Below, piece by piece: positions 3,629 through 64,000 of a DNA stretch of 64,000 nucleotides. The position numbers and the translations under genes were made by a program. Origin of the DNA: an uncultured Methylomirabilota bacterium. GTDB taxonomy: Bacteria > Methylomirabilota > Methylomirabilia > CAVQYV01. How positions within the stretch are numbered: the stretch's first letter is position 1; each line of letters starts with the position of its first letter. Where the stretch lies: positions 11,442-75,441 of the forward strand of contig CAVQYV010000008.1 in the NCBI GenBank assembly GCA_963718295.1. Direction: 5' to 3'. The notes beneath the pieces were generated by a model. That model saw only the letters and a list, made by a program, of their open reading frames with translations. It made no database searches and had not been told where the DNA came from.

Positions 3629-6600
3629 TTGGAGCTGGCGGATGGGATCGCAAACAAGGTGCCGCCCGATCCCTATCTCTGCCTTCTCGCCTACTACCGC
3701 GTCCTGGAAGCCTTCTCTTCGGAAGAACCCTTTGCCGGGAGGGCCGCTTATGAAACGGGAAGGCTCTATGTAAAGGTCGACATGCCAGAAGCAGCGGAGG
3801 CCGCTTTCAGGGTGTCGAGTACGGCCCACGGCCGGACGCTTCCGGAGGCCGCCCTCTCGGAAATTGAAACGGTTGTGATCGAGGCGAAGGGGAGATACGC
3901 TTCCGCTGAGACCTCCGCTCTGAAAGAGGAAGCCCTGAACAAGGGACTCACCGCCATCGATGGGATCGCTTCGCGACACCAGGGACTGCCGAAGGTCCAG
4001 GCACGGGCTGGCGTCGAGAAGGCGAAGCTTCTCCTGGTATTGAGCCAGAATCCTCCGTCGATTTTGAAGGCGATAGGATTCCTCGACCGAGTCATCGCCG
4101 AGTACAAGAACGAGAGGATCGAAGCGGCTGAAGCGCTGGTCCTCCGGGCCGACGCTTACGGCCAAGTGGGAATATCCGAACAGGTCTATCCCGAATACAT
4201 CAAGGTGATCGACGACTATCCCGATATCGAGGAATGGGCAGACAGGGCCGTCGAACGCATTCTCGAAAAGATCCTGAAGGAATCCAAAAAGGGCAGGCTG
4301 GAGTACCAGGCCGAGGTCCTCCGGGGGATTGCCGAGAAGAACCGTTCCTCCCATCCGAGACTTGCCATGGGCGCGCTCAACCGGGTGGGAGATCTCTTCT
4401 ACCGGGGGGACGAGTGGGAGGGGGCCAAGGCAGCATACCGGCAGGTGCTGGTTCAGTACCCGGTGGAGACAACCCAGACGGCTGCTGCAAGGCTCGCGCT
4501 GGCCGAGATCCTCTATAGGCAAGAGCGCTTCCGCGAGGCGATCGACCTCTATGAAAGGGAGCTTGCTCTGCGGTCCTACCAGGATCCTATTTACCTCCTC
4601 GCACGGGCCGGCTACATCCGAAAGTCCGTCGACTCAGGGGAGTTCCTCTATCGCATCGGAGAGGTGGCTTCGGCACGGAAGATCTTCAAGGAGCTGATCG
4701 ATTACGATGGGTCAATCATCGAGGCCCACCGGGGCTATATCAAGTGCGCGGCAGCGCAGAAAGAGGTCCTCCCTCTCCTCGCGTCGTACAGAGACCGGCT
4801 AAAGCAGAGGCCCGACGATCCCGTGGCCAATTACACCCTGGGCCTTGGCCTCACCTATCTTGAAGACAGGTCCTCGCTCGTGGAGGCGAAGCCCCTCATC
4901 CTCAAGGCGATCAGCATCTACGGACAGTCCGAATTTTTCCACCAGACCCTCGGTTACATTTTTGAGGTTCTGGAAACGGTTTATGGAGAAATGGGGAACC
5001 TTGAGTACGCGATCGAATCCTACCAGAAGGCCTTTTTCCTGAATGACCCGAGGAATAACCCAACGAATCACGCCAATCTGCTCCTCAATCTCGGGAACGT
5101 TTATCATCTTCTCGGACAGCACCAAAGAGCCTACCAGTTCTACCGGAGGCGTTTGGAGTCCCCTATTCCCTTCGACAATGAGGAGACGGAGATCCTCTTT
5201 TACCGCCGTTTCGGTGCGTCGGCATTTCAGGTTCGGAAACCGGCCGAGACGATCGAGGCTTACAAAAAAGCGCTCTCCCTCATGGAGAACCGCGTGAGGC
5301 CGAAACAGGCCTCGGATGCCTTTGACAGGATCTCAAAATACATCAAGGACAACTTCCTCATGCCGGCATCGAAGGTTGAAGCGCTGAAGAAAAAGGCCGA
5401 TGAAGTCGGTGAAAGACAGGCATCCATAAACCGTAGGCTCTTCAAACTAAGCCAGGCCGATCTGGCGTCGATCCGCGATCCCGGCTGGGAAGAATACCGG
5501 AGGGGCATGGAAGCGCTTCTCGCAGAGGAAAAGGCCCTCTTCCCCGCCATCACGTCCCTGGGCGAGGCGACGGCTATGCAGGCACCTGAGAGGGAGAAGG
5601 CAGTGCAGGATCTTAACTTCATGGCCCTGAAGGTATCGGACGCCTTGCGTTCTCCGGTCCGGTTCGCCGAACTTCAGGCTGAGATGTTCGACCGCCTCGG
5701 TCTCGCCTATCAGGAGGCGGGTGAATGGAAAAACGCGATAGAGACGTTCGAGAAGGTCTACGGCCTCAATCAGGCACTCGGACTCACCGTTAACCTGGCG
5801 AGGAACAGACGCTCGGCTGCATACAATCGCTACCTGCTTGCGGGGCAGCTCTCGGGAGACGAGCGTGTCGCTCAGCTCAGGAAGGCCTCCGAGGAATTCC
5901 AGGAGGCGCTCTCCCTCGTCCAAAAATATGGCGTGGTGAAGAAAGGAGAGGAGAGGGATAAGGCCCTGATCAGCGTTGCCCTCCAGGTCTCACTCGACAC
6001 GGCCGCCGCCACAGAGGCTGCCTATGGCTTTTCCAAGGAGCAGGAGGAGCGGCTGGCCGAAGCCTTCATCACGCGCATCCTGACCGAACTGGGCGAGCTG
6101 GACCCCGCTCTGGAGATGACCCAAAAACAGCTCGGACGCTATCCGCCGGACAAAAGCATCGCCGAAAGAGATGTCTACGGAGTATCGCTCCTCTACCACA
6201 GGGCGGGCCATCTCTTCGCTGCCGAGGAAAGACCGGCCGATGCCTTTGACGCCTTCGGCCGCTCAGCTGAACTTGCCCATCGGATGGGAAATCCCGTGAA
6301 CGCCGCAATCAACACGATGAATATGGCCCATGTCCTCGCTGCCATGCCCGAAGCCGATCCTGTCTTTGACACATTACGGCAGCGCCTTTACCAAGCGGAT
6401 GAAAAGACCACTGGTCTCGTTTCCGGCGATAAAGCAATCGAGGGCTTGGCCATCCTCCCATATTACCATAACATCATGGGAGTCTACCTCATCGCCCTAG
6501 CCCCGGCTGCTGGAAAGGCCGACGTCGTATCGGCATCGACGCGAATGGACGCACTCCGGCGTGCCCTAGCCCATTTCGATAGAGGGCTCCGCTTCTTTAA

Positions 6601-9600
6601 GGAGACGGGCTATGACAGAAAAATGCTCTCCCTTGAGGCCGCACTCCACCTGAACACGGCCGCCGCCGCGTCCATGATGGGCGATGCCACAGGCGCGGCC
6701 ACATGTTTCGAAAAGGCGCTGAAGGTCGCAATGGATGCGTTCCTTCCCGAGATCGAATGGAGGGCATTGAGCGGCCTCGGCCGGACCAAAGAGGCGCTCC
6801 ATACGCTTTCGGCCATGACGCTCATTCGCGCCGGGGCAGGGCCGGAGGAGATCCTCCCGGCCTTTTCAGGACTCGTTCAGGCGAAGATAGAGAATGGGAA
6901 GACCGAAGAAGCCTTCAACCTTGCGGAGCGTCTTTCCGAGCTTGACAGGGTGCAAAGGCTTGCGTCTTTCGTGATCGGAGAGATCCCGGAAAGGGAGAGG
7001 ACGCTTTATCGCGAAAGCTATCAAAGGGTCATTCGCATACAACAACTGAAGAAAGATATGGCTTCCGCAAAAGGTGAGGAAAGGGAGTATGTGAAACGCC
7101 GATTGGACCAGGAGACCGATCTTCTGTCGGAAAAATTGGGGAAGCAACGCGAGCGCATTCAGTATCTCAATGAGTTGGTGAAGGACCCGGGGTTTCAGGA
7201 TGAAGTGATGATCTTGATCGCGCTCGCGATGCGAGCCGAGGAGGTAGCCGACGCCGCGGTTGCGACCGATGACGAGGAACGAAAAAAGGTCCTCAGTCGC
7301 GAGCACGCAGACCTGAGTGATCAATACGGAAAGACCCTGAGCCGAATTCTGTCGAGAGGCGAGGAGGAAGACGCCCCCAACATGGCTCCTCTCTTCGGAC
7401 CGAAACCGGTCGAGGCCATCGATGTCATGGAAACCCTTTCGGAGGACGAAACCCTCTTCAGGCCTTTCAGGATGAGGGGCGATCCATCGGGATTCCTCGT
7501 CTTCAGGGTCACGAAGGAAGACCTGGAGGTTAAAAAAGTGTCTTCACTGGATCAGATCAGACTCCCCGAAAAAGGGAAAGCCACGATCGCCTATGAAGAT
7601 AGGACGGCACTTCCCGGTGGACTCAAGCCATCGGCCTGCGCCTTGAGCGCGACGCATCTCATCAGGTCAACCCAAAACAGAAAACCGTTCAAGAGAACGC
7701 TCCTCGCCGTATCCTATGAAGGTTCGATCCCACCCTCCTATGCCGTGAAGACCCTTCCATCTTCTGCCGTCGAAAAAGATATCCCCGACGCGATGACGGG
7801 ATCCCATCTCCTCCTTTTCGGCGGTTCCATCGCCCCTGCCCAGACCGTTCCGACGCGAGCAGCCGAGGTGCCCACTCGTTTCATCGGAATGGGATTTGAC
7901 CGAGGCAGAAGACTCAGCCTACGCATGCTCGCAGCTGGGCTCCGCGATGTCTCCCTTGCGCTTCTGCCCGGGCTCCACCGTGAGGGCGTCTACGCGGCTG
8001 GGCATCTCTTTTCGATCTTCGGCTGTCCTACGATGATCCTTCCAGAGCGGACCGGAAAGGACTCCAATTTCATCGGAAAATTTATGGAGGCCTACGAGAC
8101 CCAGGCGGCGGATGAGGCGCTAAAGAGCGCCCTTTCGCATACGACGGACTCATGGATGTTGCTTGGCTACCGGGGCATGGGTCCGGCCGAGGCGCGCAGG
8201 TTTGCCGAAGGGAATTTCGTGAAATACGTGAAAAAGGGACAGGTGGCCTTTGCGGCGAACGAGCCGGCCCGTGCCCTTTCGTACTTTGAGAACGCATTGG
8301 CCGTCGCGAAAGAGACCGATTCCCTCAAGACCCACCTCCCCAACCTCTATCGCTTAAGCCGTGAGTGTGCTTATAGGGCAGGTGACATGAGAAAGGCCGC
8401 TGAATATGCCTCGGCCCTTGTGGACTTGATCCAAAAGAAGGAACCCGATTCGAAGGACCATGCCGAGGCCCTGCTGAACTATGGCTTGGTGCTGTCGCGT
8501 CTCGAGCAATACGGGGTGGCGGCACCGCCTCTCGAGAAGTCTCTGGAGATCATGGCCAACCTCGAACTGGAGAGCGAACAGGTGAGCGCCCTCGCGAGTA
8601 CGGGCCTCGTATTCGAGAATGCCACCGAGTACGACCGGGCCCTCGTCCATTTCAGGTCAGCCCTCGATCTCAGCCTGAAGCTCGACAAGAGAGAGCTGAC
8701 CGCGCGTCAACACATGAATATCGGCCGCCTTTACGACCTCCGATTGAGCCGATACGCGGTGGCGAGGCAACACTACGAAAAGGCCCTCGGCCTCTACCTC
8801 GACCTGCGGGATGCGGCGGCCGCCGCACAGGCTCATCTCGACATAGGCCGCTGTTGCCGTCTGATGGGGAACTTCCCTGACGCCGAACTCCATTACCGTG
8901 AGGCGCTGAAGCTCGCCGGGGCGGCTTCGTCTGGGGACAGGCTGCGGGCGAAGATTGTCATCGAACAGGCCAACAACGCCTGGTTCCAGGCGCGATACCA
9001 GGAGGCCTTCGACCTACGGCAGGATGTCTACCAGGCGGCCGTGAAGGGCCAATGGCCCCTCGAGCAGGTGATCTCCCTGAACACATCTGGACTGATCTGG
9101 TGGACCCTGAACGAGAACGAACGCGCCTTGCGGGAGCTGAGGGAGGCCCTTTCCCTTGCGGGAAAGCTTGAGGTTCGGAGCGATGAGATTGCGACAACGC
9201 TCAATAACATCGGCGTCGTTTACCGGGAGATGGGGCGGTACGATGAGGCGCTAAAGACCTTCGACGAAGCCCTTGCGATAGACAAAAAACTGAAGTCCCG
9301 CTGGGCCATCGCTTACGACCTGCGCAATACGGCCCTGACCTATCTCCGGATGACACGTCCCGATCAGGCCTTACCGCTCCTGGAGGAAGCGGCGGCGGAG
9401 TCGCACGACATCGGTGACCGTGTCAACGAGGCCAAGTCTCTCCTGGGCCTCGGTGAGGCCCACTCCTTGGCGGGCAATGTTCCGAAGGCAAGGGAGGCCT
9501 TCGAGAGGGCACTGACCCTCTCCCACTCTATGGCGATACGCGAGACCGAGTGGCGGGCGCTCTACGGGCTCGGCAGACTTGCGCTTCGGGAAGACAAGAA

Positions 9601-11053
9601 GAAAGAGGCGAAGGAATGGCTCTTTAGATCGATCGACGTGATCGAGGGGATGCGAGCCGATATCAAGATCGAACAGCTCAAGGACGGCTTCATCACGAAC
9701 AAGGTCGATGTCTACGAAACACTCGTCACGCTACAGTCAGACCTGGGCGAGACCGAAGCCGCCTTCGAAACCGCGGAGCGCTCCCGCGCCAGGAACTTCA
9801 TTGATCTCCTCGGCAACCAGAGGCTGAGCCTGCAGAACGCTGTCGACCAGGAGCTTTACGAACGCCAGCTCAGAATGAGGGCGCGGATCGTGGAATATGA
9901 AGCCCTCGTGGCCCAGGCGGAGGATAAAAAGACGGCGGAGGTATACAGGACGTCTCTTGCACGGCTCAACGACGAACTGCGTGATCTCATGCTTGAAATA
10001 CAGACGAAGAACCCCCAGCTCGCGAGTATCGTCTCCGTCGACCCCCTCAAGACGGACGAGGTGCAGAAGCTCCTTGAGCCGGGAGTTGTCCTGTTGGCTT
10101 ATTATATCGTTCCTGATCAGGTACTCTGCTGGGTGGTGAAGAGAGAGGGGGTGAAGCTCTTCAGGACCCCTTTGAACCGGTCGGCCCTCGGGGAGTCGAT
10201 CCTGGCATTTCGCCAGACGATCCAGAACCTCGAACCGATCGAAAAGCTTTCAAAGGAACTCTTCAGTAAACTGATGTCGGCCGTCGTACCTGAGGTCGAA
10301 GGTGCGAAATACCTCGGAATCGTGCCCCACAGCTTTCTCCATTACCTTTCCTTCGCAACCCTTTACGACGGTGCCCAGTATGCAGCCGACCGCTTTCCGC
10401 TCTTCTATCTCCCAAGTGCGAGCGTGCTCAAGTATACGCTGAGCAGGAGGACGGACAGTAAAAACCCCCAGGTCCTTGCCATCGGAAATCCCAACCTCAA
10501 CGACCCGGCCCTGAACCTCCCCTTTGCCGAGCAGGAGGTCGAGACGATCCAGTGGAATTTTGACAAGGTCACCCTTTTGACAAAAGAGAGGGCCACCGAG
10601 AGCTGGGTCCAGGGGAACATAGGGAAATTCGGAATCATCCACATCGCATCCCATGGCACATTCGATCCGATCAACCCGCTCTTCTCGGCGATCAAGCTCG
10701 TCAAGGACGAGAAGGCCGACGGCAACATGGAGGCGGCCGAGGTTTTCGGTCTTGGGATCAATGCCGATCTAGTGCTCCTGAGCGCCTGCCAGACTGGCCT
10801 AGGTCGAATCACCCAAGGAGACGACGTGATCGGCCTGAACCGGGCCTTCTTCTATGCGGGCACGCATTCAATCATTTCGAGCCTCTGGCGCGTGAGTGAC
10901 ATCTCGACCGGGGTGCTGGTGAAACAGTTCTACCGTCTTTACAGCTCTTACAACAAGGCCGAGAGTCTCCGAAGGGCCATGCTGCATGTTAAGAACCGTT
11001 ATCCCCATCCCGGCTACTGGGGCGCCTTCATTCTCTCGGGCGATTATTACTAA
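3629..11053 (+). CDS. giant TPR-repeat protein with C-terminal CHAT (caspase-like) protease domain
   Basis: 2,474-aa ORF with many TPR-like repeats (e.g. LNNIGVVYREMGRYDEALKTFDEALAI). C-terminal CHAT motifs are IHIASHG (His codon 10652-10654) and LLSACQTG (Cys codon 10787-10789). The frame is open upstream to 3488 and encodes SSTRGGVSNLWSLP, which continues the propeller ORF. Confidence 0.9.
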   Translation: MELADGIANKVPPDPYLCLLAYYRVLEAFSSEEPFAGRAAYETGRLYVKVDMPEAAEAAFRVSSTAHGRTLPEAALSEIETVVIEAKGRYASAETSALKEEALNKGLTAIDGIASRHQGLPKVQARAGVEKAKLLLVLSQNPPSILKAIGFLDRVIAEYKNERIEAAEALVLRADAYGQVGISEQVYPEYIKVIDDYPDIEEWADRAVERILEKILKESKKGRLEYQAEVLRGIAEKNRSSHPRLAMGALNRVGDLFYRGDEWEGAKAAYRQVLVQYPVETTQTAAARLALAEILYRQERFREAIDLYERELALRSYQDPIYLLARAGYIRKSVDSGEFLYRIGEVASARKIFKELIDYDGSIIEAHRGYIKCAAAQKEVLPLLASYRDRLKQRPDDPVANYTLGLGLTYLEDRSSLVEAKPLILKAISIYGQSEFFHQTLGYIFEVLETVYGEMGNLEYAIESYQKAFFLNDPRNNPTNHANLLLNLGNVYHLLGQHQRAYQFYRRRLESPIPFDNEETEILFYRRFGASAFQVRKPAETIEAYKKALSLMENRVRPKQASDAFDRISKYIKDNFLMPASKVEALKKKADEVGERQASINRRLFKLSQADLASIRDPGWEEYRRGMEALLAEEKALFPAITSLGEATAMQAPEREKAVQDLNFMALKVSDALRSPVRFAELQAEMFDRLGLAYQEAGEWKNAIETFEKVYGLNQALGLTVNLARNRRSAAYNRYLLAGQLSGDERVAQLRKASEEFQEALSLVQKYGVVKKGEERDKALISVALQVSLDTAAATEAAYGFSKEQEERLAEAFITRILTELGELDPALEMTQKQLGRYPPDKSIAERDVYGVSLLYHRAGHLFAAEERPADAFDAFGRSAELAHRMGNPVNAAINTMNMAHVLAAMPEADPVFDTLRQRLYQADEKTTGLVSGDKAIEGLAILPYYHNIMGVYLIALAPAAGKADVVSASTRMDALRRALAHFDRGLRFFKETGYDRKMLSLEAALHLNTAAAASMMGDATGAATCFEKALKVAMDAFLPEIEWRALSGLGRTKEALHTLSAMTLIRAGAGPEEILPAFSGLVQAKIENGKTEEAFNLAERLSELDRVQRLASFVIGEIPERERTLYRESYQRVIRIQQLKKDMASAKGEEREYVKRRLDQETDLLSEKLGKQRERIQYLNELVKDPGFQDEVMILIALAMRAEEVADAAVATDDEERKKVLSREHADLSDQYGKTLSRILSRGEEEDAPNMAPLFGPKPVEAIDVMETLSEDETLFRPFRMRGDPSGFLVFRVTKEDLEVKKVSSLDQIRLPEKGKATIAYEDRTALPGGLKPSACALSATHLIRSTQNRKPFKRTLLAVSYEGSIPPSYAVKTLPSSAVEKDIPDAMTGSHLLLFGGSIAPAQTVPTRAAEVPTRFIGMGFDRGRRLSLRMLAAGLRDVSLALLPGLHREGVYAAGHLFSIFGCPTMILPERTGKDSNFIGKFMEAYETQAADEALKSALSHTTDSWMLLGYRGMGPAEARRFAEGNFVKYVKKGQVAFAANEPARALSYFENALAVAKETDSLKTHLPNLYRLSRECAYRAGDMRKAAEYASALVDLIQKKEPDSKDHAEALLNYGLVLSRLEQYGVAAPPLEKSLEIMANLELESEQVSALASTGLVFENATEYDRALVHFRSALDLSLKLDKRELTARQHMNIGRLYDLRLSRYAVARQHYEKALGLYLDLRDAAAAAQAHLDIGRCCRLMGNFPDAELHYREALKLAGAASSGDRLRAKIVIEQANNAWFQARYQEAFDLRQDVYQAAVKGQWPLEQVISLNTSGLIWWTLNENERALRELREALSLAGKLEVRSDEIATTLNNIGVVYREMGRYDEALKTFDEALAIDKKLKSRWAIAYDLRNTALTYLRMTRPDQALPLLEEAAAESHDIGDRVNEAKSLLGLGEAHSLAGNVPKAREAFERALTLSHSMAIRETEWRALYGLGRLALREDKKKEAKEWLFRSIDVIEGMRADIKIEQLKDGFITNKVDVYETLVTLQSDLGETEAAFETAERSRARNFIDLLGNQRLSLQNAVDQELYERQLRMRARIVEYEALVAQAEDKKTAEVYRTSLARLNDELRDLMLEIQTKNPQLASIVSVDPLKTDEVQKLLEPGVVLLAYYIVPDQVLCWVVKREGVKLFRTPLNRSALGESILAFRQTIQNLEPIEKLSKELFSKLMSAVVPEVEGAKYLGIVPHSFLHYLSFATLYDGAQYAADRFPLFYLPSASVLKYTLSRRTDSKNPQVLAIGNPNLNDPALNLPFAEQEVETIQWNFDKVTLLTKERATESWVQGNIGKFGIIHIASHGTFDPINPLFSAIKLVKDEKADGNMEAAEVFGLGINADLVLLSACQTGLGRITQGDDVIGLNRAFFYAGTHSIISSLWRVSDISTGVLVKQFYRLYSSYNKAESLRRAMLHVKNRYPHPGYWGAFILSGDYY

Positions 11054-12864: not shown

Positions 12865-12962
12865 TGGCGGAGGCGCGTGGGAGTCGAACCCACCCAAGGC
12901 ACCGCGAAGGGCCTCGCACTGGATTTGAAGTCCAGGAGCAGCACCGGCCACAACCCGCCTCC
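12865..12962 (-). tRNA. selC: tRNA-Sec (anticodon UCA)
   Basis: 98 nt. The anticodon arm CTGGACTTCAAATCCAG is identical to E. coli selC as I recall it. Extended acceptor stem GGAGGCGG/GCGCCTCC, long variable arm, T-arm GTGGGTTCGACTCCCAC, encoded CCA. Confidence 0.93.
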
Positions 12963-56759: not shown

Positions 56760-56804
56760 AAGGGGTTGCCAGCCATGCTTAAGGCTCACAACCCCTTGAT
56801 TTTT
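56760..56804 (+). terminator. possible rho-independent terminator
   Basis: AAGGGGTTG, a 20-nt loop, CAACCCCTT, then GATTTTT. Confidence 0.4.
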
Positions 56805-56880
56805 GGTGGAGCTGAGGGGATTTGAACCCCTGACCTCTTGACTGCCAGTCAAGCGCGCTCCCAATCTGCGCCACAGCCCC
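56804..56880 (-). tRNA. tRNA-Ala (anticodon GGC)
   Basis: Reverse complement GGGGCTGTGGCGCAGATTGGGAGCGCGCTTGACTGGCAGTCAAGAGGTCAGGGGTTCAAATCCCCTCAGCTCCACCA. G3:U70 pair, anticodon loop CTGGCAG. Confidence 0.93.
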
Positions 56881-56945
56881 TTTGCCTGTCGCTAATCTAA
56901 CTAACAGCAACCCTTTGCCTTGTCAAGGGGAAAGTGAATACCTTC

Positions 56946-56974
56946 TTGACAGGATGGCCCAGAGGCGTTAGAAA
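56946..56974 (+). promoter_or_regulatory. possible promoter for tRNA-Leu
   Basis: TTGACA (56946-56951), a 17-nt spacer, then TAGAAA (56969-56974). It lies 30 nt upstream of the tRNA 5' end. Confidence 0.35.
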
Positions 56975-57004
56975 TAGATAGAAATAGATAGATGATCTTC
57001 TCCT

Positions 57005-57092
57005 GCCGGAGTGGTGAAATTGGTAGACGCACGGGACTCAAAATCCCGCGGACCTCTGGTCCATGTCGGTTCGACCCCGACCTCCGGCACCA
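57005..57092 (+). tRNA. tRNA-Leu (anticodon CAA)
   Basis: GCCGGAGTGGTGAAATTGGTAGACGCACGGGACTCAAAATCCCGCGGACCTCTGGTCCATGTCGGTTCGACCCCGACCTCCGGCACCA. Long variable arm, anticodon loop CTCAAAA. Confidence 0.93.
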
Positions 57093-57531: not shown

Positions 57532-58743
57532 TTACCAACGCGGATAGTTGGGCACGCCATAGGCAGGATGGCGATAGTACTGATCCCAGTTGGTGACTTT
57601 CCCGTACAACTCCGGGGTCCAGGGCAACCACCGCGCCGCATAGGGATGGCGTGGGAAGTCCTGGATGATTGCCTCCTCCAAGGGCAGGCCGACCACCTCG
57701 ATCTCGTCGTACTCCATCTTGCCCAGACCATGCTTAGCAGCCAGGCGGGTGCTCCCGATGTTCCTCGGGTTCAGGTTCATGCAAGCAGTACCGATGGCAT
57801 CCGCGGCGACCGGGTCTTTGCTGGCGATGAGCAGTCCCGAGAGGAAATAGGGGGCTACCGGCGTCCAGGTCCCGGCATAGATCGCGTCGATGATGTGCAT
57901 CTGCTTGGGGACTACCTTCTGGGCGATGTAGGTGACATCCGCATTGACCTCGGCCAGCTTGTTGTGGGGCAGCCCAAACTTGTTAGCCCCGATGACCCTC
58001 GAGGAAGGCAGGCCGATGCCCATGTTCTTCAGGGTTAGGGTGACGCCCGCCATAGAATGGGTCTTGAAGGCACAGATGGGGATCAAGCATTGCACCTGCT
58101 TCAGGAGCTTGGGCATGGGATATTGCTTGGAAGCCAATCCCAGTCCCGGCATCATTTCCCAACTCTCGCACAGATCGATCAGCTCATACTTGATGCCCAT
58201 ATCCGCATACCTTTTCTGGGCATAGACCAGGCCGTAGTTCATGTAGGTCGCCCAGGCATCGCCGAAGGCCGGACACTCTGCGATGATAATCCGGCTGGCT
58301 CCCATCTCCTTGCAAATCCTGGCTACTGCCAGGGCCGCGCGGGGATCGGCAAAGGCTCCCTGGATGCTATTGTCGTCCCCATATCCCAGGTATTGCATGG
58401 GATAGTAGCTCAGGACGAAGTTGGGCTTGATCAGGACCGCCTCGCCCTTCTTCAGAGGGATTCCGCCGGCTAGCTCGGTCACTTGCTTGACCAGCTTGTA
58501 CCAGACCTCCTCGCTCGCTACATCCCAGGTGGCCCGGGTGTGATCGCCCTCCGACTCAGCATATTCTTGGACGTTTTTCAAGCTCAAGTCAACCAGCTCA
58601 CGGACGTGGAACTTCCCATCCAGCATCGCCGCTTCTTCCGGCGTCGCCTTCACGATGGCGACTACACTCTTCTCCGCCGCTGCAATCGAGGCGAAGATGG
58701 CGATCATTCCTGCTGCTAAAAGGAGAATTATCATCCGCTTCAT
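57532..58743 (-). CDS. secreted/anchored DUF362-domain protein
   Basis: Signal peptide MKRMIILLLAAGMIAIFASIAAA. GEAVLIKPNFV motif typical of DUF362. AGGAGGT RBS. Confidence 0.65.
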   Translation of the reverse strand: MKRMIILLLAAGMIAIFASIAAAEKSVVAIVKATPEEAAMLDGKFHVRELVDLSLKNVQEYAESEGDHTRATWDVASEEVWYKLVKQVTELAGGIPLKKGEAVLIKPNFVLSYYPMQYLGYGDDNSIQGAFADPRAALAVARICKEMGASRIIIAECPAFGDAWATYMNYGLVYAQKRYADMGIKYELIDLCESWEMMPGLGLASKQYPMPKLLKQVQCLIPICAFKTHSMAGVTLTLKNMGIGLPSSRVIGANKFGLPHNKLAEVNADVTYIAQKVVPKQMHIIDAIYAGTWTPVAPYFLSGLLIASKDPVAADAIGTACMNLNPRNIGSTRLAAKHGLGKMEYDEIEVVGLPLEEAIIQDFPRHPYAARWLPWTPELYGKVTNWDQYYRHPAYGVPNYPRW

Positions 58744-59170
58744 CGGCGCTACCTCCTGTCCGATCCATGGTTTAGGAACCTGATGTATTCCTTCCTCCCC
58801 AACGAATTCATTATGTCATCGACCACCTCCTTTCGCATTCTGAAAGCGCCCCCCATTCTCCCGCAAACACAGGGAGGCACCGCAGTCTTGAGGGCCTGAA
58901 GATCGGTTCGGTGCCTCCATTTTTCACCTCCTGCCGAAATGCTGTTGGGGGGGATAGCGAGACTACAACTCTGGACAAAGGACGCAAAGCCTAATGGGCT
59001 TATCAATCTGGGCAACTGACGCTGGCCTGCAGGGGACTGGCCCTTACGTGGCCAACTATCTACACCTGTCCATTTTCCTTGTCAATCTATTTCTGAATGG
59101 ATTGGGCGGACATCGTTTGAAAACGAAGTCTGGAATTCGAGGCATAAGACGCGAATGGAAGCCAAGGACC

Positions 59171-59507
59171 CCTCGCAGACTTGACTTGTTGGGAGACAAG
59201 CATCTGTGGTATCTTTGCAATGTCCCCCAAACGATCCATGCAGGTTCCGAGCTGAAATCATGCAGGCCTCAAAGGAAGGTAGGGGACGGCCTACGGCTAT
59301 TCGGGGGTCATTTGAGGAGGTTTTGTTCAGGAGAACTTCTTCGGGGAAGCGGTTTGCTTCCGGGAGAGGTGCTCCTTCCTCAATGAGAGGAGGTGATGGA
59401 GGCCAAGAATGAGAATGGAGGGAAAACCCAGGGAGCAGGTTCTATCTTGATGTCGGATCTCTTTAAGGGAAAGGATTGCGAAAGATGAACAAGACTGTGC
59501 TCATCGC
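59171..59507 (+). repeat. copy 1 of a ~337-bp promoter/leader/uORF/first-codons unit
   Basis: Aligns base-for-base with 62671-63006 apart from scattered substitutions and one net 1-nt indel. It ends 8 codons into a truncated MNKTVLIA... ORF. Confidence 0.9.
59396..59488 (+). CDS. 30-codon upstream ORF (copy 1)
   Basis: MEAKNENGGKTQGAGSILMSDLFKGKDCER. Length and frame are conserved with copy 2. The TGA overlaps the next ATG (ATGA). Confidence 0.3.
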   Translation: MEAKNENGGKTQGAGSILMSDLFKGKDCER

Positions 59508-59537
59508 GTTCGCGCCAGTAAATGAACAGGAGCTTGT

Positions 59538-60059
59538 ATGACAGAGAAGGAATTCTTTAACACGGTTTTGAATGGGAGCGAGGACGTACTACAACTATTC
59601 CTTGCAGCCATCTCATTCGCCGGGGTGGGCTACTGTGTCATTGGGGGCCTGGCGGTGAATGCTTATGCGGAGCCAGTTGTTAGCCTCGATCTCGATGTTG
59701 TGGTGGGCGCAGAAGATATCGACCGTGTCTGCAAGGCCATCGAAGGCCATTTCAGGGTGGAGCGTTTCGCGCATAGCGTCAACCTCAGCAGCGACAAGTC
59801 CTCATTGAGAATTCAACTTCAGACCGATCCGCGTTACCTGGATTTCATCGGCAGAGCCACAATGCACACGGTACTGGGATACAAGATGCGGGTCGCGAGC
59901 ATCGAGGATGTTCTACAAGGCAAGATCTGGGCGTATTTGGATGAAGATCGGCGGAAGAGCAAGAGGCAGAAGGATTTGGCGGACGTCGCACGACTGGTGG
60001 AAGCCTTTCCAGATTTGACAGAGCGTCTGCCCGAGGAGATCCGGAAGACACTGCAATAG
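59538..60059 (+). CDS. minimal nucleotidyltransferase-fold protein (pol-beta superfamily)
   Basis: VIGGLAVNAYAEPVVSLDLDVVV fits G[GS]-x(9-13)-DxD. The ATG overlaps the stop of an 18-codon remnant ORF (ATGA). Confidence 0.55.
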   Translation: MTEKEFFNTVLNGSEDVLQLFLAAISFAGVGYCVIGGLAVNAYAEPVVSLDLDVVVGAEDIDRVCKAIEGHFRVERFAHSVNLSSDKSSLRIQLQTDPRYLDFIGRATMHTVLGYKMRVASIEDVLQGKIWAYLDEDRRKSKRQKDLADVARLVEAFPDLTERLPEEIRKTLQ

Positions 60060-60652
60060 CGGCGTGAATCAGGGCCTGGAGTCGGGCACGGCGCAAAAAT
60101 GCGCTGCGCCATCTAGGCGCGGCGGTAGGTCTTTGAATTTGGAGGGAACAACTGGGTGAAAGAAAACCGGTTTCCGATTTTCCTTATCGTCATCCTCCTC
60201 CTGCTGGCCTTGCAATCCATTTCCTTGGCAGCCGAATCAGAAAAATCCACTATCACGCCCCCCCGGGGGTCTGCACGGTGTCTATCGGCAGGGTAGACTG
60301 AGCGAGGAGCGATCCGAGCCCATCGCCAGGCAGAAGTCACTAGAGGACAGAGTAGGTACAGATAGGTGAGGCGAGTGGGGCACCCCAAGGTTGAAAGGCG
60401 AAGAAACAGAGACTTCGAGCCACAGGTCGGCACGCGAAATTCCGAACCGTGGAGCGGAGGCATAGCGCCAGAAAAGCGACTCAGGCCGTCCTCATTAAGG
60501 ATCGAAACCTGCGTCGGCGCAAAAGTCTCCGAAAGCCCAGCTGGTTGCCATCCGGCAGGCTCGCAGAGTCTTCCGCTGCTGCTGCGCGGGGGCGCCTGAC
60601 ACCCGACGGTCTGGGGCGACATCATTGGCATCGTCAAAGAGGAGGCAGCGCT

Positions 60653-62161
60653 ATGAACCAGATACTTATTGGCAAGGGTGAGCAACTCGTCCACTTGCTC
60701 GCCAAGTACGCCAACCGGCATGGCCTGGTCGCCGGCGCCACCGGCACCGGTAAGAGCGTTTCGCTGATCGTGCTGGCGGAAGGCTTCTCGCGTTTAGGCG
60801 TGCCGGTGTTCATGGCGGACGTGAAGGGGGATATCGCCGGCTTGGCGGTGGCTGGTACCACCAACGAGAAGATCCAACAGCGCGTTGCACAGATCGGGAT
60901 CGAGGGTTACGCCCTCGAGGCCAGTCCGGTGGTGTTCTGGGACTTGTACGGCAAGGCAGGCCATCCCGTCCGGGCGACGGTCAGCGAGGTCGGCCCGAAC
61001 CTGCTGGGTCGGATCCTCGAGCTCAACGATATCCAGGGAGGGACGCTGGAGGTCGCATTCAAGCTGGCGGACGACCAGGGCCTGTTGCTGCTCGACCTCG
61101 ACGATCTGCGCGCCCTACTCGGGTTCGTTGGGGCCAACCGCAAGGAGATCTCGACGCAATACGGTCTGGTCAGCACACAGTCCGTGGCTGCCATCCAGCG
61201 CGCCCTGTTGTCGCTGGAGCAGGAAGGTGGGGAAACCCTGTTCGGCGAGCCGGCCCTCGAACTCGGGGACTTGATGCGCACGGACCTCAGCGGGCGCGGC
61301 ATCGTCAACATCCTCGCCGCCGACCAACTGATTTTGAAACCACGCCTGTATTCGAGCTTCCTGCTGTGGCTCCTGTCGGAGCTATTCGAAAACCTGCCTG
61401 AGGTGGGGGACCTCGACCAGCCCAAACTGGTGTTCGTCTTCGATGAGGCCCATCTGCTCTTCGACGACGCTCCGCCGGCGCTGCGTCAGAAGGTGGAGCA
61501 GGTCGTGCGGATCATTCGTTCCAAGGGCGTGGGCGTGTACTTCTGCTCGCAGTTTCCGGACGACGTGCCGAACGAGATCCTGGGCCAGCTTGGGAACCGC
61601 ATCCAGCATGCTCTGCGCGCCTATACCCCCCGTGATCAGAAGGCAGTGCGCACCGCCGCCGAAACCTTCGTTCCCAACCCCAGGATCGACGTCGCCCAGG
61701 TGATCTCCCAACTGGGTGTGGGCGAGGCCCTGGTATCCACCCTCCAGGAGAAGGGCGTGCCAATGCCGGTGGAGCGCACGCTCATCTGTCCACCGCGCTG
61801 CCGGATGGGCGCGATTACACCGGAAGAGCGGGCGGCCGTGCGGGCACGCAGCCCGGTAGGCGGCAAGTACGACTCCCCTGTGAACCGCGAATCGGCCTAT
61901 GAAATCCTGAGCCGGAGGACCGTGTCAGTGGAGGCGGAGGCGGCGCGGCCAGACCAAGCCCCGGCGGGACCGCGCTCCGACCAGGCCCCGGCGTCTAAAG
62001 GCCGCGGGCCTCTGGGCGATTTGCTATGGGGCACCCAGCGCCGCCAGGGCATGGTGGAAGCCATGGCCAAGCAGGCGGCGCGCACCGTGGGGAGCCAGAT
62101 CGGCCGGCAGATCCTACGCGGCGTGCTCGGCGGCATCTTCGGCGGATCACGCCGCCGTTAG
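60653..62161 (+). CDS. HerA-like helicase-domain ATPase (DUF853, YjgR-like)
   Basis: Walker A GLVAGATGTGKSVS. PKLVFVFDEAHLLF (Walker B). RSKGVGVYFCSQFPDDVP. AAAGAGGAGG RBS. Start set at ATG 60653. Confidence 0.85.
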   Translation: MNQILIGKGEQLVHLLAKYANRHGLVAGATGTGKSVSLIVLAEGFSRLGVPVFMADVKGDIAGLAVAGTTNEKIQQRVAQIGIEGYALEASPVVFWDLYGKAGHPVRATVSEVGPNLLGRILELNDIQGGTLEVAFKLADDQGLLLLDLDDLRALLGFVGANRKEISTQYGLVSTQSVAAIQRALLSLEQEGGETLFGEPALELGDLMRTDLSGRGIVNILAADQLILKPRLYSSFLLWLLSELFENLPEVGDLDQPKLVFVFDEAHLLFDDAPPALRQKVEQVVRIIRSKGVGVYFCSQFPDDVPNEILGQLGNRIQHALRAYTPRDQKAVRTAAETFVPNPRIDVAQVISQLGVGEALVSTLQEKGVPMPVERTLICPPRCRMGAITPEERAAVRARSPVGGKYDSPVNRESAYEILSRRTVSVEAEAARPDQAPAGPRSDQAPASKGRGPLGDLLWGTQRRQGMVEAMAKQAARTVGSQIGRQILRGVLGGIFGGSRRR

Positions 62162-62301
62162 TGTGCGGGCACCGTAGTACTGCTGCGGCGTGTCGCCGCC
62201 CCAACAAGCCAATCAAGCTGTTGGTCGTCTTCGGCAGCCGCAGCTTATGGCGATCCGTCTGACCAGGAAATTGAACACAAACTCAATAAAGGAGATTAGC
62301 A

Positions 62302-62550
62302 ATGGGAATTCTATCTTGGATCGTAATGGGGTTAATCGTAGGTTTGCTCGCAAAATTCATCATGCCGGGCAAAGACCCTGGAGGAACTATCATTACCATT
62401 TTGATAGGGATAGCGGGTGCTTTCGTAGGCGGGTTTATTGGGTCCTTTCTGGGCCTTGGGACAGTTACAGGATTTAATGTAGGGAGTATCTTGCTGGCTA
62501 TCGGTGGGGCTGTCCTCCTATTGATTCTGTATCGCACCATAAAGAGATAG
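62302..62550 (+). CDS. GlsB/YeaQ/YmgE-family small membrane protein
   Basis: MGILSWIVMGLIVGLLAKFIMPGKDPGGTIITILIGIAGAFVGGFIG. AAAGGAG RBS. Confidence 0.85.
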   Translation: MGILSWIVMGLIVGLLAKFIMPGKDPGGTIITILIGIAGAFVGGFIGSFLGLGTVTGFNVGSILLAIGGAVLLLILYRTIKR

Positions 62551-62670
62551 CACCCCTTCCAGGCCTAACACTCCTTCGGATGCGCAAAAACCGCGCCCCA
62601 CTGAGCTTCGACGTCGTGCAAGAGTAATAAAATGGAAATCAGTAATGGGGTCAATCAGTAAGTGGGGTCA

Positions 62671-63006
62671 CCTCGCGGACTTGACTTGTTAGGAGACAAG
62701 CATCTGTGATATCTTTGCAATGTCCCTCAAACGATCCATGCAGGTTCCGATCTGAAATCATTCAGGGCGCAAGAGGAGGGGAGGGAGGCCCTACGGCCTT
62801 TCGGGGGTCATTTGAGGAGGACTTGTTCAGGAGACCTCTTCGCGGGAGTTCTCCACTTCCGAAAGGGGCGTTCCTCCCTCTGAGAGAGGAGGTGATGGAG
62901 GCCAAGAATGAGAATGAAGGGACAATCCAGGGAGCAGGTTTTATCTTGATGTCGGATTCCTCTAAGGGAAAGGATCGCGAAAGATGAAGAAGACTGTGCT
63001 CATCGC
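62671..63006 (+). repeat. copy 2 of the promoter/leader/uORF/first-codons unit (functional copy ahead of the amidase gene)
   Basis: See copy 1. The offset between copies is 3,500 bp at the 5' end and 3,499 bp at the 3' end. Confidence 0.9.
62895..62987 (+). CDS. 30-codon upstream ORF (copy 2)
   Basis: MEAKNENEGTIQGAGFILMSDSSKGKDRER. The TGA overlaps the amidase ATG (ATGA). Confidence 0.3.
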   Translation: MEAKNENEGTIQGAGFILMSDSSKGKDRER

Positions 63007-64000
63007 TTTGCTTCTCTCGCTTTCGATCTTGATGGGCATTGCTGCCGCCTGGGCAGCCGAGGCCCAGAAGATCGTCTTCGCCAGCCAGATCGTGGATGTC
63101 ATCGGCCCCTCCTCCAAGATGATCGGGCCCGTGCAGAGCGGGGGGATCATCGTCGCTACTCCGGAGGCCGCCTGCTACGGGCCCATGATTACGCCTCAAC
63201 TGAAAAGTGGACACACGCTGACCATCCCGGTGGCCGTGGAGGGGGCCGAGGTGGGAGACGCCATCGCCCTCAAGATCAAGAAGGTAAGGGTCTTGGCCAA
63301 GGCCACTGCCTCCGGCACGGAAACGGCCATTAAGGATCGCTTCGTCGGTGACCCCTTTGTGGCCAAGCGCTGCCCCAAGTGCGGGATGGTCAATCCGCCC
63401 ACTGAACTCAAGGGAGTTGGCGCGGAGGCCATCCGCTGCAAGATGTGCGGGGCTCCTTGCATCACTTTCCAGGTCACCAACGGCTACACCCTCCTCTTTG
63501 ACGAAGATCGGAGCATCGGGGTTACCCTGCCCAAGGCGGTGACCGATGAGATCGCCAAGCAGGCCTATGAGTTTTCCGCTGTTCCCAGCAAGGGTCTCTC
63601 TTATCCCGTGACCCTGCTCAGCCTGGCCGATATGCCTCCGGGGATCATCGCCCGGGTGCGGGCCATGATCGGGAATATGGGGACGACTCCCGCCATCGAT
63701 ATGCCCACCTCCCACAATGCCGGTGATTACGCCGTCTTCTTGGTGGGCGCCCCCCACAAGCTGGCGATTACCAAGGCGGACTTAGGCCAAGCGCAGCGAT
63801 GCCCATATGGACATCGATAATGTGCGGGAAGGGGCGATCGTCATCACGCCGGTCAAGGTCAAAGGCGGAGGCATCGTGGTGGGCGATGTCCACGCCATGC
63901 AGGGAGATGGGGAGATCTCCGGCCATACCACCGATGTGAGCGCAGAGGTAACCCTGGAGGTGCAGGTGATCAAGGGCCTCAATCTGGAGGGACCGATCCT
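62984..64000 (+). CDS. acetamidase/formamidase (FmdA/AmdA) family protein with signal peptide; frame break 63786-63797; 3' end outside window
   Basis: MKKTVLIALLLSLSILMGIAAAWA, GPVAVEGAEVGDAIALKI-type motif and CPKCGM...CKMCG. After the break, DAHMDIDNVREGAIVITPVKVKGGGIVVGDVHAMQGDGEISGH continues in another frame to the window end. Confidence 0.8.

Follow-up and report, generated by a model that had tools for sequence, protein, structure and literature searches.

A diverged direct repeat of an amidase leader brackets a mosaic gene block in an uncultured Methylomirabilota bacterium

Introduction

One known amidase gene behind a long leader is amiE of Pseudomonas aeruginosa, whose leader terminator is controlled through AmiR/ANTAR antitermination. 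For the placing of one gene's regulatory sequence before another gene, the closest parallel is the rnk-citT module of the Cit+ lineage in the E. coli long-term evolution experiment, which reportedly arose by promoter capture through tandem duplication. The locus described here can be set beside both. It lies in a 64,000-nt stretch of DNA (the window, which is the whole stretch analysed) from an uncultured Methylomirabilota bacterium (CAVQYV01; assembly GCA_963718295.1, contig CAVQYV010000008.1, positions 11,442–75,441, forward strand). Two diverged copies of an amidase leader bracket a block of three genes, encoding a nucleotidyltransferase (NTase), a DUF853/HerA_C ATPase and a GlsB/YeaQ-type small membrane protein. 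A first-pass annotation of the window had explained this arrangement by capture of foreign DNA behind a duplicated regulatory unit, or by replacement of one of two tandem amidase paralogues, and had treated the three genes as a meaningful unit. As analysed below, the locus looks like an ordinary local genome rearrangement and not a new three-gene system.

Results

The repeated amidase leader

The two copies of the leader are located as follows.

59166..59507, + strand: leader copy 1, comprising TTGACT, a leader of ~270 nt and 7 2/3 codons from the start of the amidase signal peptide (repeat search, MAFFT, blastn)
62666..63009, + strand: leader copy 2, continuous with the amidase gene (repeat search, MAFFT, blastn)

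A repeat search aligned 59166–59337 with 62666–62837 (87% identity, spacing 3500) and 59335–59510 with 62834–63009 (84% identity, spacing 3499), and this shift in spacing implies one net indel between the copies. The same single indel, among scattered substitutions, is found in the pairwise MAFFT alignment, and a blastn search of the window with copy 1 returns 86.2% identity over 341 nt (E 1.4e-111) and detects no third copy in the 64 kb. All three methods thus agree with the end-to-end repeat described in the first-pass annotation. Each copy extends from ~15 nt 5′ of a TTGACT box (59181–86 in copy 1, 62681–86 in copy 2) to codon 8 of a signal-peptide open reading frame (ORF), which starts MNKTVLIA in copy 1 and MKKTVLIA in copy 2. 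Identity between the copies is uneven, reaching 90–97% in the 5′-most 80 nt and in most of the 3′-terminal 130 nt and falling to 67–70% in two 40-nt intervals in the middle; the longest identical stretch is ~33 nt. Both TTGACT boxes overlap a palindrome, CTTGT-N6-ACAAG (59185–59200 and 62685–62700), that the leaders of relatives lack. This palindrome may be a lineage-specific operator.

Amidase homologues at 77–99% identity were taken from metagenomes and GTDB genomes, and the amidase comparison set comprised 164 related loci. These homologues occur in many unrelated neighbourhoods, yet they share an upstream region of 250–400 nt. Searches with an nhmmer profile (~1.7 Mb of loci) and a covariance model (~0.8 Mb) recovered ~25 other instances of the leader, one per locus and each directly 5′ of an FmdA-family amidase gene, with no significant match elsewhere in these loci. 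Apart from the two copies in the window, matches are confined to amidase genes of the clade sharing at least 77% identity. The repeated unit is therefore correctly described as the promoter, leader and start region of an amidase gene and, because the leader is otherwise found solely 5′ of amidase genes, copy 1 is the only instance that heads a different gene.

Junctions

The breakpoints of the repeat, whose mapping had been proposed in the first-pass annotation, were placed at 59506–59508 on the left and at about 62660–62670 on the right, the latter beside a 16/17-nt tandem repeat.

59506..59508, no strand: left junction, amidase codon 8 fused to position −31 of the NTase cassette, with ~1 nt of microhomology (homology limits)
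59485..59541, + strand: chimeric 18-codon ORF (MNKTVLIA + FAPVNEQELV), whose stop shares an ATGA with the NTase start at 59538 (sequence)
62551..62665, no strand: spacer before copy 2, holding the tandem repeat AATCAGTAA(T/GT)GGGGTC x2 at 62637–62669, which abuts the start of the repeat (sequence)

Two loci define the left junction. L005 is an amidase locus from the same cluster as the nearest relative of the window (the contig encoding P0002) and was used for comparison at the DNA level; L173 carries the NTase closest to that of this relative. Homology of copy 1 to copy 2 and to L005 stops at ...CTCATCGC, while homology to L173 starts at CGTTCGCGCC, 31 nt 5′ of the NTase ATG, and the window itself reads ...CTCATCGC followed directly by GTTCGCGCC... 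The 246 nt that precede the NTase block in L173 are unrelated to the leader. Since homology to the leader ends where homology to L173 begins, the sequences at 59506–59508 were joined non-homologously. The tail of the chimeric ORF is native NTase upstream DNA common to L173, and its ATGA overlap is a by-product of the amidase frame running into this DNA; the ORF itself and the two signal-peptide starts are as first read. In shape, the left joint fits a tandem duplication or a template switch, as the right end of a segment (amidase codon 8) is joined to its left end (31 nt 5′ of the NTase). Separately, positions 235–263 of L173, 5′ of its NTase, resemble window positions 62601–62628, 3′ of the GlsB gene, over 28 nt (CTGARCTTCGACGT...AGTAAT). 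With a score of 24 against 16.2 +/- 2.2 for shuffles (maximum 25), this borderline similarity could be a direct repeat flanking the block or due to chance.

The nearest relative

Two genes flank the repeat and its interior.

57532..58743, − strand: DUF362-family gene, 403 aa, divergent from copy 1 (Pfam PF04015, 90 bits)
62984..64000, + strand: FmdA_AmdA-family amidase gene with a Sec-type signal peptide, frameshifted and running off the end of the window (Pfam, both frame pieces)

The amidase of the window shares 97% nucleotide identity with that of L005 and, at the protein level, 97% identity with that of the P0002 contig. The gene order of this contig, known from gene coordinates alone, is NTase-48 aa-104 aa-HerA-GlsB-DUF362(−)-746 nt-amidase. 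Spacing within the block is nearly the same in the relative and the window (1114 and 1115 nt, respectively, from NTase to HerA; 1649 nt from HerA to GlsB), and in the relative the block ends 273 nt from DUF362, on the far side from the amidase. Because the block already lies beside DUF362 in the relative, it was a neighbour before the rearrangement, and the capture of foreign DNA that had been proposed for the window is not supported. The distance from the DUF362 start to the ATG of copy 1 is 742 nt in the window, compared with 746 nt from DUF362 to the amidase start in the relative, which places copy 1, and not copy 2, in the ancestral position. The upstream region of the relative's amidase is of normal length, with room for one leader; from the gap sizes and L173, we infer that the relative carries a single leader.

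No DUF362, NTase, HerA or GlsB gene was found by tblastn in any of the 164 amidase loci, none of which has a second amidase within 10 kb; nor does the window. After copy 1, tblastn found no amidase-derived sequence past codon 8. No ANTAR or other regulator gene is conserved beside the amidase loci.

The two frame pieces of the window amidase match Pfam FmdA_AmdA with 67.6 and 73.1 bits. Compared with three relatives there is one extra base at 63782–63784, where window positions 63776–63790 read GAC TTA GGC and the relatives GAC GAG GCC. It closes the frame at 63820, and the protein resumes in another frame from about 63786, so that the gene is either a pseudogene or affected by an assembly indel. 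In locus L106 (CP070704.1, 9863–10855), from the chromosome of a metagenome-assembled genome, the amidase match goes no further than residue 289 and the hairpin region is missing from the leader, which suggests that the same amidase locus is decaying in another lineage. More distant amidase homologues, at 55–62% identity, occur in Asgard and Bathyarchaeia metagenome-assembled genomes (P0037, P0039, P0040, L095, L097 and L099), and this bacterial-type secreted amidase family thus crosses domains.

Beyond DUF362, the window has a tRNA-Leu gene, 440 nt from the DUF362 stop, in place of the block. A divergent tRNA-Ala/tRNA-Leu pair is located at 56804–57092. The window also holds a tRNA-Sec gene (12865–12962) and a 2474-aa ORF (3629–11053). 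A 64-aa C-terminal DUF362 remnant lies beside a patatin gene on an unrelated contig (L172, 2392–2586; 90% nucleotide identity to window 57532–57725).

Mosaic interior

The segment between the copies contains the following features.

59538..60059, + strand: predicted orphan MenT1/AbiEii-like nucleotidyltransferase, 173 aa, with its own AGGAG Shine-Dalgarno sequence (Pfam, PADLOC, Foldseek)
60060..60652, + strand: decayed spacer, comprising a 5′ ORF stump, unmatched DNA, the end of a YidB-like gene and native HerA upstream DNA (comparison with L173 and L170)
60653..62161, + strand: DUF853/HerA_C P-loop ATPase, 502 aa, Walker A GATGTGKS (Pfam PF05872, 716.8 bits, residues 8–501)
62302..62550, + strand: GlsB/YeaQ-type (Transgly_assoc) small membrane protein, 82 aa (Pfam PF04226, 46 bits)

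By blastn, window positions 59517–60091 match the NTase loci L165–167 at 90%, 59507–60274 match L173 at 95%, and 60560–62258 match the HerA loci L170 and L171 at 92% and 84%, respectively. Neither 60275–60559 nor the GlsB region has a match among the fetched loci. Separate homology blocks with unmatched DNA between them show that the interior is a mosaic, as the first-pass annotation had proposed, and the junction that closes copy 1, 31 nt 5′ of the NTase ATG, is clean and non-homologous. The gap between NTase and HerA, described earlier as ~590 bp of non-coding sequence, is indeed 593 nt long, but it consists of gene debris. At 60156–60296, a 46-aa ORF is what is left of the 5′ part of a secreted-protein (signal-peptide) ORF; L173 has a longer version of this ORF and, at the same place (1015–1616), ~600 additional nt flanked by CCCCGGGGTC repeats. 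Positions 60560–60599 correspond to the final 40 nt of a YidB-like gene, of which L170 has an intact copy 5′ of HerA. A weak match to group II intron D1-D4 at 60299–60392 (E 3.6) was taken as chance.

The base composition of the interior differs moderately from its surroundings. GC content is 58% for the window, and GC content at third codon positions (GC3) is 0.68–0.79 in neighbouring genes, compared with 0.64 for the NTase, 0.82 for HerA and 0.49 for GlsB (overall GC 46.6%). The visible differences in composition reported in the first-pass annotation are thus clear for GlsB alone and moderate for the NTase and HerA. No transposase or integrase ORF was found in the 57–64 kb region (ORF list, Pfam). 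A composite transposon was rejected, as the flanking repeats are amidase leaders and not insertion sequences and there is no such gene; an island at the tRNA-Leu gene was also rejected, as the window contains no att-like second copy of the tRNA-Leu 3′ end.

The gene identities given in the first-pass annotation (NTase, HerA/DUF853, GlsB and amidase) were borne out by Pfam matches, although that of the NTase is weak: AbiEii (PF08843) scores 28.9 bits against a cut-off of 22.5 and covers residues 112–172, the C-terminal third, alone. The NTase has no NCBIfam match, a weak match to PADLOC AbiEii and a best E of 0.24 in a PDB sequence search. With its AlphaFold model (pLDDT 77), the best Foldseek match is MenT1 of M. 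tuberculosis (Rv0078A, 8an5/8an4; E 4e-6, TM 0.59–0.62), followed by other NTases. The catalytic motif GG...DxD lies in GGLAVNAYAEPVVSLDLD, and G36, G37, D51 and D53 are invariant in 30 homologues. The predicted fold and the G[GS]-x(n)-DxD motif are those of pol-beta-type NTases, and the protein is best described as an orphan MenT1/AbiEii-like NTase with a putative toxin role. Some 6900 homologues exist, mostly of 173 aa; the NTase was not found in the plasmid collection searched. Among five NTase contexts, an HTH-XRE gene lies upstream in L166 only, the copy in L168 follows a MNT/HepT pair, and neither HerA nor GlsB is adjacent in any. In the window the NTase is flanked by the amidase leader and chimeric ORF upstream and by gene debris downstream; no adjacent antitoxin gene is present there, in L173 or, by gene calls, in the nearest relative.

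DUF853 homologues 83–95% identical to the ATPase occur in Nitrospirae, Deltaproteobacteria and Acidobacteria in unrelated contexts, and neither of the two contexts sampled has an NTase or GlsB gene beside it. The three genes had been regarded as a unit, but their homologues were never found together in the sampled contexts or in the amidase loci, the nearest relative being the exception. Upstream of HerA, 93 nt of its native DNA are preserved, including a promoter-like site at 60596–60625, and GlsB has its own Shine-Dalgarno sequence, so a three-gene operon is not implied. A defence-system reading was dropped, as matches in PADLOC were partial and low (mad8 55 bits and HerA models at most 45 bits, against 717 bits for Pfam DUF853), NCBIfam HerA_antiphage_2 scored 17.7 against a cut-off of 850, and PHROGs were uninformative. 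No SIR2, DUF4297 or mads partner gene is present at the locus. A literature search for DUF853/YjgR found no functional study.

Predicted leader structure

Two further features lie within copy 1.

59314..59400, + strand: long imperfect hairpin, followed by the Shine-Dalgarno-like GAGAGGAGGUGAU (covariance model 69 bits, E 1.7e-14; folds; pair counts)
59393..59488, + strand: lineage-specific upstream ORF of 30–31 codons, starting at GTG, with a TGA stop overlapping the amidase-type ATG at 59485 (sequence)

In relatives, the leader starts with TTGACT-17 nt-TAATAA and a purine-rich tract, followed by a segment with the loop UUYGUUCAGG that is able to pair with the next element, a long GC-rich hairpin. 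In most of their sequences a U-tract comes next, and the leader ends with a near-perfect anti-16S AAAGGRGGUGAU, the actual Shine-Dalgarno sequence and the ATG. The hairpin of copy 1 is the positional counterpart of the terminator hairpin in these leaders, and that of copy 2 lies at 62814–62899 (covariance model 61 bits). The U-tracts 3′ of the relatives' hairpins include UUUCUCUUU, UUAUCUUUUU and UUUUCUUUUU, among others; the window copies lack one and have the CU-rich CUCCUUCCUC and UUCCUCCCUC at that place. A terminator scan called no terminator in either window copy.

RNAalifold on the entire 396-column leader alignment recovered four pairs of the hairpin core, and because this alignment was too divergent it was replaced by a covariance model of the hairpin only. 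Over 14 distinct leaders, the 15-pair hairpin has 78.7% of cells paired, compared with 73.2% when shuffled (0 of 500 shuffles reach the observed value) and 37–68% in slid controls, and a covariation score of 0.238 compared with 0.164; these statistics are biased towards structure because the alignment was fitted to the model. The pair counts give modest support to the hairpin. Differences between the window copies in the upper stem are compensatory (GGAAGC/GCUUCC and GGGAGU/ACUUCC). Folding energies of the window leaders are no better than those of shuffles (z −0.75 and +0.24). An Rfam and covariance search, also proposed in the first-pass annotation, assigned the leader to no known RNA family: Rfam 15 gave no match in the region at the gathering score, and the matches at E<=10 (eukaryotic snoRNA/lncRNA, the L31-Actinobacteria ribosomal-protein leader and a group II intron fragment) are chance, while the hairpin model built here matches both copies. 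The lack of an Rfam match and the shuffle-level folding energy led us to drop a riboswitch reading.

Two elements noted earlier stand in part. The TTGACT boxes of the supposed promoter are present in both copies, but the sigma-70 scan called no promoter in either, each having a spacer of 20–23 nt and a poor −10 element, compared with 17 nt to TAATAA in relatives. The upstream ORF is likewise present, but not as a conserved element: in most relatives the frame has 4–9 open codons and no start codon, and in the closest relative the ORF is in a different frame. A conserved leader peptide was dropped for this reason.

Discussion

On balance, we lean towards a diverged direct duplication of the amidase promoter-leader-start unit, brought about by a local, non-homologous duplicative rearrangement around the nearby mosaic block, with the enclosed genes as independent passengers and not a functional system. 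The mechanism could have been tandem duplication followed by deletions, or template switching during replication. The rearranged segment would have run from the NTase through DUF362 and the leader to codon 8, the left joint being its novel joint, and further deletions would be required to reach the gene order of the window. In this way the block, already nearby, would have been placed between one copy of the leader and the amidase. The block consists of the orphan MenT1-like NTase, the debris of two genes, the DUF853 ATPase and the GlsB-type protein, and a separate ribosome-binding site precedes each of the three genes. Were the TTGACT promoter active, a transcript begun in copy 1 would run through the hairpin, which here has no U-tract; the 18-codon chimeric ORF would be translated, and the transcript would extend into the NTase. 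Copy 2 still heads the amidase, which is frameshifted in the assembly.

Several points weigh against a duplication of this kind. The copies differ by 14% overall and by ~30% in the middle, whereas divergence at four-fold sites between the amidases of the window and its relative is 5.5% (10% between the NTases of the window and L173), so that a simple recent duplication does not fit a neutral clock. Because the window has the tRNA-Leu gene beyond DUF362, and not the block, at least two events are needed to pass from the relative's order to that of the window. Finally, the relative's arrangement is read from gene coordinates and its single leader is deduced, and the arrangement of the window comes from the assembly alone. 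Within the last 130 nt, unique changes number 1 in copy 1, 9 in copy 2 and 17 in L005, and no clock-like tree fits this three-way pattern of 1 : 9 : 17. An old duplication, recombination that brought in one copy from elsewhere, or rapid and patchy evolution of the leader could each account for these conflicting divergences.

Import of one copy is possible, though not probable. The block with a leader copy, or copy 2 with the amidase, would have come from a more distant strain by homologous recombination through the leader and amidase, as a Campbell-type event or a double crossover, leaving two diverged copies of the leader. In favour of import, the middle of the repeat has only 67–70% identity, set against a neutral divergence of 5.5% from the nearest relative, and GlsB is an outlier in composition. 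There are 10 sites in the last 130 nt at which L005 matches just one of the window copies; copy 1 is the match at 9 of them and copy 2 at the other. However, the amidase following copy 2 is 97% identical to the relative's and thus no more diverged than the rest of the locus, and at 17 sites the leader of the relative matches neither window copy, which implies that the leader is fast-evolving or patchy in all lineages. Moreover, the left junction is non-homologous and not the product of a Campbell crossover, and in the relative the block already lies close by.

Two readings would give the leader a regulatory role here. It is rather unlikely that the ~270-nt leader is an undescribed cis-regulatory RNA (a promoter-proximal attenuator, with an antiterminator/terminator switch and the conserved loop UUYGUUCAGG) restricted to one clade of secreted FmdA-type amidases from bacteria of anaerobic sediments, and that it was duplicated and co-opted here over an antitoxin-less MenT-like toxin gene. 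Selected regulatory capture, in which the leader, as promoter and attenuator, would have been co-opted over the toxin-like NTase, DUF853 and GlsB as a stress or defence operon, is unlikely. Copy 1 has kept TTGACT, the conserved hairpin, a start codon and the ATGA overlap with a MenT1-like NTase that has no antitoxin, and the upper-stem changes between the copies are compensatory. Against this, the genes do not co-occur outside this lineage, gene debris of 593 nt separates the NTase from HerA, which keeps native upstream DNA with a promoter-like site, no sigma-70 promoter was called in the leader, and PADLOC gave no system-level match; the relative, moreover, appears to have the same block without the leader.

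A chimeric assembly of two strains joined at the leader is very unlikely: the source is metagenome-assembled and the amidase indel could be an assembly error, but the copies are 86% identical and share no identical run above ~33 nt, which is too short to cause misassembly, the left junction coincides with the edge of the homology and does not fall inside it, and the linkage of the block to DUF362 recurs in an independent sample. The eight codons of an amidase-type signal peptide retained by copy 1 would fit a tandem amidase pair whose upstream member was replaced by foreign genes, but such a replacement is highly improbable given that neither the 164 loci nor the window has such a pair, that no amidase sequence follows codon 8 and that copy 1, and not copy 2, lies at the conserved distance from DUF362.

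If the local duplication is correct, the locus is a tidy natural case of a regulatory unit duplicated before an unrelated gene, with junctions mapped to within a few bases. It adds nothing on the functions of the NTase, DUF853 or GlsB, and the suggestion of a new three-gene system is removed. Of wider value as a lead is the leader itself, which is clade-specific and hairpin-bearing, heads secreted formamidase-like genes and has no entry in RNA family databases; as judged from sequence, it is a modest lead to an uncatalogued attenuator-like element.

Comparison with known systems

The ATPase differs from those of the HerA anti-phage systems (SIR2-HerA, DUF4297-HerA and mads) in lacking an effector partner gene and in falling short of the defence-clade profile. 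It resembles the DUF853/YjgR-type HerA_C ATPases in its full-length Pfam match, its Walker A motif and its 83–95% identical homologues in many phyla, and compared with them it has no unusual feature. The NTase shares with the MenT/AbiEii (DUF1814) toxins a small predicted NTase fold, the GG...DxD motif and a TM score of ~0.6 over its full length, and an HTH-XRE gene precedes its L166 homologue in the manner of a toxin-antitoxin pair; it shares only 16% identity with MenT1, however, and in the window no antitoxin gene is adjacent.

As in amiE, an amidase gene lies behind a long leader, with a GC-rich hairpin and U-tract in most relatives and an upstream segment capable of pairing with the hairpin's 5′ arm. 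In contrast to amiE, to which no sequence relation was found, there is no conserved ANTAR or regulator neighbour, the window copies lack the U-tract, and no Rfam family is matched. The rnk-citT module differs in that here the copies are 14% diverged, the segment between them has ceased to correspond to a simple tandem unit, its second unit lacking DUF362, there is no evident selective benefit and the case is known from sequence alone. What the two share is a non-homologous joint that puts a promoter and first codons before a formerly upstream gene, leaving direct repeats of the regulatory region on both sides.

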